Assembly: GCA_964016885.1 (NCBI GenBank)
Contig: CAXHJY010000608.1
Span: 91,218 to 155,217, forward strand
Reading direction: 5' to 3'
DNA: 64,000 bases
Source of the DNA: Eledone cirrhosa
Lineage: Eukaryota
The notes beneath the pieces are model-generated. The model was given only the letters and a program-made list of their open reading frames with translations. It searched no databases and was not told where the DNA came from. The position numbers and the translations under genes are program-made. This document shows positions 28,701 to 49,036 of the stretch, piece by piece (within the stretch, counting starts at the first letter, position 1; every line of letters begins with the position of its first letter).

Positions 28701-31426
28701 GAAAAAACTTGGTACATCTACATATGTATACGTGTGTGTATTCATATACATACTAGTATTTCAGTATACATATATGGATGTACATCTTTAACTTAATTGT
28801 TTAAGCGTCAGTCATACAAAAGTGAGTTACAAATGAAACAAAATTTAATTTCGTTTCGTTATTTGTTTTTATCGTCTCCGTTGAACCGGTACTTACTCAC
28901 ACTCTATGCAAATTAGTATGCCCACTACTAATTTTCATACAAAAAGCATATAACGATATGTGCTTTTACGATTCTCTAGAGAGGCCGGAAGATAGGTAAA
29001 TATTGCTGATGAGTTGTAACAACAACGAAACTAGTTCAATATTCCTTGTCTGGCTTTCTAGAGAATAGAGGAAAGGTGTTTCCTCAAAAACCAGTATGAC
29101 TCTAAAAACCGGTTTGTCTGTGTGTTTACATACAGAATAGCTGGCCACTCACAGTAAAGTGACCAGTGAAAAAACTTGGTACATCTACATATGTATACGT
29201 GTGTGTATTCATATACATACTAGTATTTCAGTATACATATATGGATGTACATCTTTAACTTAATTGTTTAAGCGTCAGTCATACAAAAGTGAGTTACAAA
29301 TGAAACAAAATTTAATTTCGTTTCGTTATTTGTTTTTATCGTCTCCGTTGAACCGGTACTTACTCACACTCTATGCAAATTAGTATGCCCACTACTAATT
29401 TTCATACAAAAAGCATATAACGATATGTGCTTTTACGATTCTCTAGAGAGGCCGGAAGATAGGTAAATATTGCTGATGAGTTGTAACAACAACGAAACTA
29501 GTTCAATATTCCTTGTCTGGCTTTCTAGAGAATAGAGGAAAGGTGTTTCCTCAAAAACCAGTATGACTCTAAAAACCGGTTTGTCTGTGTGTTTACATAC
29601 AGAATAGCTGGCCACTCACAGTAAAGTGACCAGTGAAAAAACTTGGTACATCTACATATGTATACGTGTGTGTATTCATATACATACTAGTATTTCAGTA
29701 TACATATATGGATGTACATCTTTAACTTAATTGTTTAAGCGTCAGTCATACAAAAGTGAGTTACAAATGAAACAAAATTTAATTTCGTTTCGTTATTTGT
29801 TTTTATCGTCTCCGTTGAACCGGTACTTACTCACACTCTATGCAAATTAGTATGCCCACTACTAATTTTCATACAAAAAGCATATAACGATATGTGCTTT
29901 TACGATTCTCTAGAGAGGCCGGAAGATAGGTAAATATTGCTGATGAGTTGTAACAACAACGAAACTAGTTCAATATTCCTTGTCTGGCTTTATAGAGAAT
30001 AGAGGAAAGGTGTTTCCTCAAAAACCAGTATGACTCTAAAAACCGGTTTGTCTGTGTGTTTACATACAGAATAGCTGGCCACTCACAGTAAAGTGACCAG
30101 TGAAAAAACTTGGTACATCTACATATGTATACGTGTGTGTATTCATATACATACTAGTATTTCAGTATACATATATGGATGTACATCTTTAACTTAATTG
30201 TTTAAGCGTCAGTCATACAAAAGTGAGTTACAAATGAAACAAAATTTAATTTCGTTTCGTTATTTGTTTTTATCGTCTCCGTTGAACCGGTACTTACTCA
30301 CACTCTATGCAAATTAGTATGCCCACTACTAATTTTCATACAAAAAGCATATAACGATATGTGCTTTTACGATTCTCTAGAGAGGCCGGAAGATAGGTAA
30401 ATATTGCTGATGAGTTGTAACAACAACGAAACTAGTTCAATATTCCTTGTCTGGCTTTCTAGAGAATAGAGGAAAGGTGTTTCCTCAAAAACCAGTATGA
30501 CTCTAAAAACCGGTTTGTCTGTGTGTTTACATACAGAATAGCTGGCCACTCACAGTAAAGTGACCAGTGAAAAAACTTGGTACATCTACATATGTATACG
30601 TGTGTGTATTCATATACATACTAGTATTTCAGTATACATATATGGATGTACATCTTTAACTTAATTGTATATATATATTTATATATATATATTATCAATA
30701 TATCTATATATATTTATATATATATAATCTATATATCTTTATATCTATATATATATATATATATATATATTATCAATATATATCTCTATATATATATGTA
30801 TATATAATCTATATATCTATATATATATAATATATATATCTATATATATATTATCTTTATATATATCTATATATATCTATATATATCTATATATTATCAA
30901 TATATATATATTATCAATGTATATATATATATCTATATATATATATATATATATTATCAATGTATATATATATATATATATATATACATATATATATATA
31001 TATTATCAATGTATATATATATATATATATATATATATATATATATACATATATATATATATATATATATATATATATTATCTATATATATATATAAATA
31101 TATATATATATTATCTGTATATATATATATATTATCTCTCTCTCTATATATATATAAATATATATATATATATATATATATATATATATATATATATATA
31201 TATATATATATATATATATATATATATATATATATATATATATATATATATATATATATATATATTATCTATAAATATATATATATATCTATATATGCAA
31301 AGTTTTATTTAAATTGTTGGGTTACAACGAGTAAATATTTATAACTGATATAAAAGCACTCAACAAGTATTTGGAGTATATTTACGATATTAAATAAATG
31401 GAAACTATATTTATAAAACCATATTT

Positions 31427-31490
31427 ATTTCATTATATATATTTCAGGGATATCATATTAAAAATATGTTATGCCTTCTTCAGACAAAAT
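31427..31490 (-). ncRNA. Type I hammerhead of PLE family A
   Basis: ATTTTGT-CTGAAGA-AGG..CCT-GAAA-TATATA-TA-ATGAAAT. Confidence 0.8.
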
Positions 31491-47081: not shown

Positions 47082-49036
47082 TATATTTACTTAAGATATT
47101 TAACTATTTATGAAACTTGCCGATAAATCTTTCGATTCCTTCAATTTTTTTAAAACCTTCTGCATGAGTATATAAATTAATAAGATTAATTAAAGTACCC
47201 TATAATGGTGATGTTCCCAATCTATTGAATACATTTTTAAGCTAGATAAACTTCTATAATAAATATAAGAGCATTTGTAGAATAAATTTTTTTTTTGAAT
47301 GATTTCTGCTAAATAAGGTTTGTTGAATAATTTTGGTTTAGTTTACTTTTGATTATGATTGCTTCTAATGAACTTGACAATATATTGTCAAATAAATTTG
47401 AAGGGTGGTTTTCTGTGGTTGATGCGCGTGGCATACTATGTTTTATTGCGTCCCTAGTTACTCTGTGGAGTGACGAAGATATTCTTGGCGTTTTTAATAT
47501 ATTTTTTTAGTATATTTTTAATATATTTTTAATATATTGATATCTGTTGTCTAATCTATGCTTGAACGATAATCATGTAAGTGAGGGCAAGAATATTATT
47601 ATTAATATTAATGTACACTTTATGTCTATATATATATGTATGTACATATATGTATGGTGGAATCTTTTGTAACGCAATGAAGCTTTTCAGAGCCGATCAC
47701 GTAAATTCACATGTGTGTCCATAATTGTCAACTTGAATTTGAGATAACCTTCTCTTTTCTCTTTTTCTTTTTTCATGAAAATACATATATACTTATGTAT
47801 TTCAGAAGTTTTGAAGTTTCATCTCAGATTTTGCTTATAAACCTAAGAATTTTTAAACTAAACATGGGGTCACAATTTTTTCATTTTTTCACACGTTATT
47901 GATATGTGTCTCATTCATGAATATTGATATCTACATTGTAATACCTAATTCATATGAATTGATAATTCAAATCGACGAGACATAATATTTTAAATATATT
48001 TTAAATATATCATCTTTCTTTCTTTTTCTCCTCTACACTTGACGGGACTTATATATCGGCTGTTTTTAACTGTATCTCTCCCACCTCGTATGATAGGTAT
48101 TATTCGATCTACCTCTTTTCTCCCACCACATATATCTCTCTATACCTCTCTTTATTTATCATATTTCTCTCCGTATCCTTAACACTATAACTAAATAAAT
48201 AAATAAATAAATAATTACAGTACCCCCTTCCCTCCTTAATATCTCATTTGTACGCTGATCATCTGTCTCCAAGCTGCCTATCATTTTTCACTCCCTCAAT
48301 ATATTTCTCTCTCCCATATCTCTTTCTCTCTATCTCGCTCTGTTGCTTTCTTTGCATACATCTCTTCATCTTCTTCTCTAACTGTCCTTAGCGCTATACA
48401 CTTTCTTTCTTCTTCTCTTCTTTTTTCTTTTTTTTTTTCTTCTTTTTTTCTTTTTTCTCTTCGTCCTTCTTTTTAACTGTCCTCAACATTTTCACTACCA
48501 AATCAACTTTTTAAATGGAAGTTGCACTGTTCTATGTATGTCATAAATGTTTTTTCATTCTCATATATTGTTTCATTTTTATATATATATCGAGAATGAC
48601 ACTTCTTTTTACTATTACACTCCCTTCCCTATTTATCTTCAGCATATAAGTGATCGCGTGTGTGAGTGTTTATACGCGTGCTTTCATACTCGTATGTGTA
48701 TATATTTAATACCTGTATCTGGATGTATGTTAAATATATTATCTTACAATTTCATTATCAACTCATATTATATAAGTATTTGTGGTCACACATACACAAA
48801 TATACTTGGCCTCATATATGTACTTACGCACACATTTTCACCATACACATGCATTTGTACATACACACATATGTACATTTGTGAGTGAATATACATACAT
48901 ATATATATATACCCTAACTATATTTCCTTATTTTTTTATATATCTTTGCATTACTTTTATTTATATATTTTTTTGCCCGGTAAACTCTTGCCTTTCTTGA
49001 GGAGATTTATCAAATATATCACTATGTTTTAAATTG

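Follow-up and report, generated by a model that had tools for sequence, protein, structure and literature searches.

The stretch of Eledone cirrhosa DNA analysed here (64,000 nt of contig CAXHJY010000608.1, referred to below as the window) is animal-like genomic DNA of which 29% is (TA)n tract, and the islands between the TA tracts are mostly Penelope-like elements (PLEs) or non-coding elements carrying hammerhead ribozymes. Insertions of both kinds end at fixed internal sites, two per family, with one of each used in an insertion; these ends share bases with the (TA)n target, and the copies run seamlessly across the ribozyme cut. Judging from the sequence, we favour, with a probability of about 0.6, an explanation in which both strands of a cut TA tract would prime reverse transcription at two sites of an RNA template that is continuous over the cut. 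All counts of ends, arms, crossings and families refer to the 64-kb window, which was compared with itself after masking of the TA tracts. The labels A to J and the terms long and short site are our own naming, all hammerhead cut positions are predicted from sequence, and statements on cited papers refer to the portions of each source available to us.

Outer ends of the insertions

All 32 outer ends that could be assigned to a ribozyme family are 3' ends, with the sense strand pointing outward, and lie +11 to +318 nt past a cut; this count leaves out 5'-truncated island ends, pieces of long interspersed nuclear elements (LINEs), as well as fragments without a family. The range agrees with the original prediction for this DNA, which had placed the ends about 15–320 nt beyond the cut; ends near its lower limit of about +15 do exist, at 55264 and 22780, but lie outside the part of the window that the prediction covered. 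The ribozyme had also been expected to be copied intact. This stood for 26 of the 32 ends, whose arm also contains a complete ribozyme (24 of type I and two of a doubtful minimal type III), and not for the other six, where four arms are too short to contain the ribozyme, one ends inside it (43947, -34) and one belongs to a family with a decayed core. Expressed as a fraction of the unit, the ends lie at 0.013 and 0.036 in A and at 0.02 and 0.069 in C, but at 0.14–0.65 in the units of 467–595 nt; ends of these short units are therefore not near the 5' end of a monomer, and a distance of up to 320 nt is nearly what chance would give. Genuine clustering of ends past the cut is confined to the long units, A and C. 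The idea that reverse transcriptase (RT) starts near the 5' end of the monomer consequently survives for A and C (1–7% of the unit) and fails for the 467–595-nt units (14–65%), and the mapping of ends that had been proposed as a check gave, for the copies in the window, a non-random result in the former and one near chance in the latter.

Independent copies reproduce the sites to within about 5 nt: the long site twice each in A, E and G, the short site twice each in D, F and G, and both sites in H. Two sites were recognized in 10 families, and in all 10 the spacing between them, which forms the tail, is 57–162 nt; the ends of B and D fall within the start of the open reading frame (ORF). Each of the 11 two-armed insertions made of a single family pairs a long end with a short one (10 are independent, H2 and H3 sharing a junction), an outcome with p = 0.001 if each arm chose freely between two sites. 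Two chimeric insertions do the same, one joining A long to B short and the other A short to B long.

At the 15 ends where an internal copy continues, the element and the (TA)n tract have 43 nt in common against 15.7 expected (p = 5e-5), and at least 2 nt are shared at 11 of the 15 against 3.5 expected; the ends of the 467-nt array and of G share 0–1 nt. Joins between head-to-head arms show overlaps of 0–3 nt. The non-coding ribozyme arrays carry the end signature of PLEs, that is, the tail and the (TA)n target. In the literature, searched through titles and abstract openings with subscription papers excluded, no report was found of a strict pairing of long with short ends or of retrozyme arrays that bear PLE-type end signatures.

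The coding element of family A and its chimeras

By its motifs, the hammerhead in its terminal repeat and its (TA)n target, family A appears to be a Hydra-clade-like PLE. It is present in three copies, never longer than 1.2 units. The outer 3' end of the first copy, A1 (31291–31296, +138 to +143), is the long start and abuts (TA)n; the truncated 5' end meets a TA tract via a short (AAAAT)n run (34849–34870). As predicted, the end at 31295 is made of the element's own 5' untranslated region: it aligns to 44820–44826 of the second copy, A2 (+138 to +145 from the cut), and the 3' ends at 31295 and 43774 lie 44–50 nt ahead of the ATG at 44870, where about 50 nt had been announced. The period of 3963 was recovered as well, from the direct repeat 43948–44594/47911–48543 of A2 (11 substitutions in 633 aligned nt). 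In contrast, position 48543, which had been taken for an outer end, is an internal junction: family A sequence breaks off here, 87 nt short of the second cut and without reaching the ribozyme, and family B follows to 49134. The inverted left arm of A2 crosses the cut at 43914 and ends at -34 within stem II, and the main copy crosses the cut at 44681 with a further 733 nt copied upstream of its first ribozyme.

The single ORF of family A encodes an RT followed by a C-terminal GIY-YIG nuclease. Alignment revealed RWR, DKT, YRDD, CxCx5C linker, CxxC and CxH motifs, and inspection of the same alignment found no CCHH inside the nuclease core. One search returned 11 homologues; the protein aligns end to end with homologues of 700–760 amino acids, RWK occurs in three of the four aligned, and homologue P0003 has 1808 clusters at E 1e-30 or better. 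None of the four family A pieces submitted to Pfam matched, nor did two full-length homologues, and both sister ORFs gave weak GIY-YIG matches (E 0.001–0.003) below the cut-off. The ORFs of A1 and A2 diverge by 5.7%. A homodimer prediction for a 139-amino-acid N-terminal piece (score 0.00, uncertain fold, alignment unused) bears neither way.

Family A joins family B at 48543/4, and the third copy passes into another Hydra-like ORF, that of family B, at 50668/9. Together with a join at 43294/5 these make three switches between families, all away from cut sites, and they apparently result from jumping, switching or recombination between different elements. Family B also has a plus-strand arm (52360–52536) with a hammerhead cut at 52424 and the long start at +112. 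The neighbouring insertions 43774–49134 and 49913–52536 are both A/B chimeras with complementary ends, and in both of them the short-start arm changes into the family of the long-start arm.

A template proposed to be continuous over the cut

The 46 crossings of a cut found in 12 families, two of them single-copy, are all free of insertions and deletions from -8 to +10. The claim that RT reads across the cleavage junction, in the coding element too, is thus borne out. We propose that PLE proteins combining RT and GIY-YIG domains would insert into one long (TA)n tract by cutting both target strands, and that each free DNA end would prime RT at a fixed internal site of the RNA, aided by a few A/U pairs. 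Every family would offer a long and a short start 3' of the hammerhead, separated by the tail length given above, and one of each would serve in an insertion; the two complementary DNAs would then be joined head to head through the 0–3 nt overlaps. With a template continuous over the cut, the ribozyme would be copied whole and the copies would therefore look permuted relative to a cleaved monomer. Priming from both ends of the double-strand cut, suggested by the geometry of the arms and by PMC11167929, is very probable. As to the nature of the template, we lean slightly, for the 4-kb coding element, towards an uncleaved tandem or terminally redundant linear RNA, with longer-than-unit copies renewed via homology-guided jumps. 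For the arrays of 467–595 nt, a ligated circle read round and round is probably the template, because a tandem of eleven ribozymes that can pair would hardly remain uncut and because such circles are documented. A circle is allowed rather than required, since ribozyme-free Naiads build the same structure.

Several points weigh against this explanation or limit what it can draw on. None of the 24 arms of two-armed insertions stops at the cut, but the null expects only 0.2 such arms, which makes this absence weak. Seven of the 24 stop 8–65 nt upstream of the cut against 2.6 expected (p 0.008 for 1–65 nt), a clustering that was noticed post hoc and depends on the interval chosen (p 0.07–0.11 for 1–100 nt, 0.5 for 1–40 nt, 0.023 after scan correction). 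Both sites of C and of the 467- and 528-nt arrays come from a single insertion each, and their fixity is assumed. The starts of the Poseidon element PAc are reported as non-homologous to the target in PMC11167929, whereas those in the window have 0–6 nt in common with (TA)n, more than chance would give. Recombination at a later time could account for the family switches. Finally, divergence in C is 2.15% between the tandem units and 2.17% between the arms, and private changes number 13, 11 and 11 over 941 columns; such equal divergence would be expected from a circle and not from simple read-through of an old tandem parent.

Among the seven arms that stop upstream of the cut, five do so 4–21 nt 5' of the catalytic core, and three of the five multi-unit arms also stop within 65 nt upstream (p 0.009, post hoc). 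An RT stalled by the ribozyme fold would stop before or in the fold, and a 5' end of the transcript at this place is therefore the simpler reading. It is only suggestive, but the uncleaved transcript may begin just upstream of the ribozyme.

The repeats of A2 differ by 1.7% and its arms by 1.2%, and the 467-nt array, with its 5 + 11 ribozymes, shows three private changes in 7070 cells; a comparison of variant sharing between the two arms of this array had no power with three variants, all of them private. Tandem repeats as alike as the arms would have been identical at insertion, which implies either that one unit was re-read or that the parent was young. This identity is the strongest point for the circle of the original prediction. 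A homology-guided jump over the terminal redundancy predicts the same, and the seamless junction together with identical repeats is equally predicted by an uncleaved young multimer or by such a jump.

Alternative explanations

The permuted copies had been derived from a cleaved monomer read as a circular or re-ligated RNA, from an uncleaved multimer or from an end-to-end template jump. These three options were logically fair, but the weight placed on the circle is not upheld by PMC11167929 and PMC8557442, in the portions available, and the premise of a cleaved monomer is unsupported, uncleaved RNA being the dominant Poseidon template in vitro (PMC11167929). A fourth route, absent from that list, is a homology-guided jump within terminally redundant uncleaved RNA. 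According to the circular model, paired hammerheads would cut the coding RNA to a 3963-nt monomer, the host would ligate it and RT would copy the circle by rolling-circle target-primed synthesis. Such a template would account for the seamless crossings, for tandem units no more divergent than the arms in A and C, for the stretches of 733 nt in A and 2227 nt in C that were copied upstream of the first ribozyme, for the self-complementary stem III of 6 of 11 type I families and for the near-uniform array of 16 ribozymes. Small hammerhead repeats of animals are moreover known as circles (PMC7229834), a circle has been proposed for PLEs (PMC4209133), and the mechanism regenerating the pseudo-long terminal repeat (pseudo-LTR) is described as not known in PMC2377424. 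We nonetheless consider it unlikely for the coding element. Family A does not exceed 1.2 units; the same structures are formed by Naiads, which lack canonical hammerheads (PMC8557442); mutating the ribozyme leaves insertion in vitro normal, and the cut was not the end point of any read (PMC11167929); cleavage by minimal PLE hammerheads is poor (PMC4209133); the stops of three of the five multi-unit arms just upstream of the cut are not predicted by a circle; and a single circle cannot have given the right arm of A2, since family B sequence makes up the downstream end of this arm.

More speculative still is a version in which a 4-kb coding RNA circle and a two-RT complex rolling from two fixed starts, each primed by one end of a double-strand cut in (TA)n, would be parasitised by non-coding circles of 0.5–2.9 kb. 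If true, pseudo-LTR regeneration, the one-sided tail and the head-to-head multimers would have a common explanation, and the coding PLE would count as a eukaryotic retroelement that is autonomous and obligatorily passes through a circular RNA intermediate. The least credible option is the joining of cleaved linear monomers through end-to-end template jumps at the cut. The RTs of non-LTR elements such as R2 do jump between RNA ends, and family switches are seen in the window, yet these switches lie away from the cuts, no base is gained or lost in any of the 46 crossings, no arm of the 24 finishes at the cut, and A2 has no duplicated 0 to +140 stretch of the kind expected from a re-start at the internal site.

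Head-to-head arms might also arise by self-priming or fold-back, perhaps on antisense RNA as modelled in PMC3846280, with the ends produced by endonuclease resolution. The near-perfect palindrome of F and the position of the G and 467 junctions in short palindromes speak in its favour. However, the inner ends lie at different unit positions in 10 of the 11 two-armed insertions, and PMC11167929 showed priming by sense RNA on both strands. For C and the 467-nt array, fold-back copying was rejected because the short-end arm is longer than the long-end arm, over twice in C and about twice in the array. We regard self-priming as very unlikely.

Tandem arrays in microsatellite-rich DNA are unstable, H2 and H3 resemble a DNA duplication and assembly collapse could homogenise units, so growth of the short arrays in place by unequal crossover also deserves mention. 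The number of units would in that case be uninformative on the template (cf. bioRxiv 10.64898/2026.07.22.740005). Against it, both inverted arms of the 467-nt array are multimeric and equally homogeneous with all three variants private, the paired PLE ends are kept in all arrays, and the partial tandems of C and A are of the same age as their arms, which leaves this explanation improbable and two-site, two-strand priming on a continuous template the one that we prefer.

Hammerhead ribozymes

A strict topological search gave 21 type I hammerhead matches on 21 cores, against a mean of 0.12 and a maximum of 1 in 50 shuffles. A relaxed search added the hammerheads of B (CCGATGA core), C and D (control 0.18 type I per shuffle) and fitted family F only as a doubtful minimal type III; relaxing it further added G, H and I, which have a U3-A8 core, and J (control 0.35 per shuffle, maximum 3). 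The hammerhead of family E was picked by eye from the core list of the relaxed search. U3-A8 replaces the C3-G8 core in three unrelated families, and may be able to substitute for it in the hammerhead core; the available text of PMC11167929 shows rescue for the swapped C3G/G8C pair only. Standard hammerhead descriptors would miss the U3-A8 and CCGATGA cores. Among the best 150 of 171 Rfam matches, the 467-nt array matched HH9 below threshold only, the family A hammerhead was unmatched and no family reached the gathering score, the mir-297-type matches being TA artefacts.

A type III fold was considered for family A and rejected because the type I fold has an 8-bp stem I. A self-complementary stem III, as found in more than half of the type I families, is typical of dimer cleavage. 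Folding energies of circular and linear forms showed no useful difference, and comparison of 10 tails made no common structure or motif evident.

Other families and setting of the insertions

The positions of the elements are given in Table 1. The 467-, 528- and 595-nt units are non-coding tandem repeats with one type I hammerhead each. Family C contains internal subrepeats of 505 nt and about 230 nt, and its 2892-nt unit has PLE-type ends and is much longer than described retrozymes. Family F is related to a 522-nt repeat at 1–1184, in which the GAAA box has been lost. H2 and H3 have the inner junction in common, a left end in (GA)n and a divergence of 2.8%; they are probably a DNA duplication.

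Table 1. Elements and predicted ribozymes, with coordinates in the window; signed values are distances from the predicted cut
Feature	Position	Strand	Remarks
Family C	6744–13074		Non-coding 2892-nt hammerhead unit; arms 0.4 and 1.8 units; ends +199–201 and +57–60
Family D fragment, two-armed	13866–14292		Long end +217 and short end, both within PLE ORF start
Family H, two-armed	15890–16961		U3-A8 hammerhead; ends ~+76–79 and +139
Family J, one-armed PLE end	18984–21277	-	Cut 19070; end +87; Neptune-type linker motif
Family I, one-armed PLE end	22043–22780	+	U3-A8 hammerhead; cut 22763; end +18
467-nt retrozyme-like array	23228–30668		5 hammerheads minus, 11 plus, head to head; ends +302 and +231
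Family A copy 1 (A1), Hydra-like PLE	31291–34849	-	5'-truncated inside ORF
Type I hammerhead of A1	31426–31491	-	Core 31483; cut after 31434; palindromic stem III
Family G	36708–38052		Non-coding 595-nt unit; two head-to-head arms; ends +239–245 and +81; U3-A8 core; cuts 36953, 37376, 37971
Family F	38197–39050		Near-perfect palindrome; ends +157–159 and ~+251–260; doubtful minimal type III hammerhead
528-nt hammerhead repeat	39894–41688		Left arm 0.7 unit, right arm 2.7 units; ends +251–254 and +314–318
Second family G insertion	42066–42325		Two short arms, neither reaching ribozyme; long and short ends as in first G
Chimera	43219–43420	-	Family E long end (76 nt), then 124-nt family A piece; switch 43294/5
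A2 inverted left arm	43769–43947	-	Long start (+140 to +145)
Family A copy 2 (A2)	43948–48543	+	1.16 units
Type I hammerhead of A2	44624–44689	+	Core 44632; stem I 8 bp; cut after 44681
Family A RT and GIY-YIG ORF, broken	44870–47081	+	Stop 45290; frame break 46297–46413
Right arm from family B	48544–49134	+	CCGATGA-core hammerhead 49043; cut 49098; short start (+35/36)
Family A copy 3 (A3)	49913–50668	-	Short start (+50/51); ribozyme core 50013; cut 49964
Family B	50669–52536		Broken Hydra-like ORF, minus, 50669 to ~52360
Family D PLE	53281–55240	+	RT and GIY-YIG remnants; hammerhead cut 55088; short end +149–152
Family E, two-armed	55264–56004		Cuts 55277, 55915; ends +11–13 and +89
Family H copies H2, H3	59757–60259, 61989–62447 (insertions 59793–60259, 61993–62447)		Two-armed
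U3-A8 hammerheads	37892, 37032, 16793, 15998, 60078, 59897, 62278, 62097, 22680		

Interruptions of the TA tracts (TTATC, TTATG, TACAT) are strand-polarised and differ by region (21273–43777, 52691–64000, 6496–18988). This pattern suggests that a few ancestral TA tracts may have been split through serial insertions, with expansion ongoing. Synthesis of the TA tracts by RT at element ends was rejected because the polarity of TTATC is the same on both sides of inverted ends in 21273–43777. A search of the window found no tRNA genes, and hence no sign of tRNA-derived promoters. A further, unassigned island between TA tracts lies at 36108–36491. The pieces at 1383–2475 and 14817–15843, which by their motifs resemble C-terminal regions of LINE RTs, had no match in a Pfam search. 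At 2694–6495, two different Hydra-like ORF fragments stand tail to tail with a gap of about 120 nt; they lack a 3' region and a ribozyme, and both have long Asn-rich inserts ahead of the nuclease. Asn-rich inserts in this position have been noted in Adineta Penelopes.

Comparison with known systems

The permuted layout is the known arrangement of PLE pseudo-LTRs with a tail, and the circle is a published idea that is not provable from this DNA. What is added here is the long/short pairing, the sharing of (TA)n bases at the starts and the PLE signature on non-coding arrays. The Hydra clade has been described from aquatic invertebrates. Family A resembles it, as presented by Craig et al. 2021 (PMC8557442), in its RW(K/R), DKT, CxCx5C linker, CxxC and CxH motifs, in the hammerhead within the pseudo-LTR, in the (TA)n target and in the presence of tandem and inverted copies. 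It differs in its unit of 3963 nt, against a size given as 'generally <3 kb' (typical, not strict), and in the tails of the window, 57–162 nt against 30–40. The same work reports that the tail is often at one end only and that Naiads without canonical hammerheads still form tandem and inverted pseudo-LTRs and tails.

With Poseidon PAc of Anolis carolinensis (PMC11167929; Frangieh et al. 2024) the insertions share two internal, tail-defining starts, extension of both strands and an AT-rich target. In purified form, the Poseidon protein cleaves AT-rich DNA on both strands and extends the two of them, and RT starts at two internal sites that match the genomic ends, about 85–90 nt past the ribozyme cut (start +111–118, cut +26 of the ORF). 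Unprocessed RNA was the main template in vitro, cleavage was dispensable, and RNA-seq gave no reads with an end at the cut. The one-long-one-short pairing seen in the window is unstated for PAc in the available text of that paper.

As in Penelope (PMC2377424, PMC3846280), the 3' end reaches into the 5' region and the ORF start of the element itself, partial tandems occur and the tail is on one inverted repeat; 'circularly permuted' copies were noted in Adineta. PMC3846280 describes a tail on one inverted repeat and ends inside the ORF start, explained by self-priming, and PMC2377424 places the promoter in the upstream repeat with no way known to regenerate it. The window differs in that one arm, and never both, carries the tail in 11/11 insertions and that both arms may be multimeric.

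The 467–595-nt units, non-coding, in tandem, with a type I hammerhead each and beside PLEs, are, at the level of DNA, like the non-LTR retrozymes of animals. Small animal retrozymes form circles and have been tied to PLEs by co-occurrence and terminal-repeat similarity (PMC7229834, bioRxiv 10.64898/2026.07.22.740005). Unlike them, the arrays in the window are head-to-head and two-armed, with a PLE tail and a (TA)n target, and the 2892-nt unit exceeds the 51–972 bp consensus range of bioRxiv 10.64898/2026.07.22.740005. Cervera and de la Pena 2014 (PMC4209133; reviewed in PMC6765202) found that minimal PLE hammerheads cleave weakly as dimers, and proposed cleavage, ligation and circles as templates for longer-than-unit PLE copies. 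The original prediction amounts to this same model, to which the window adds no proof. Regeneration of the pseudo-LTR and the role of the hammerhead are open questions in the PLE field (PMC2377424, PMC8557442), and the permuted look leaves them unanswered because it is the known layout. The window does sharpen the predictions, namely a long and a short start per insertion, short (TA)n pairing and a PLE fingerprint on retrozyme-like arrays, and with a dozen families of this kind the genome is well suited for telling a circle from an uncleaved multimer.

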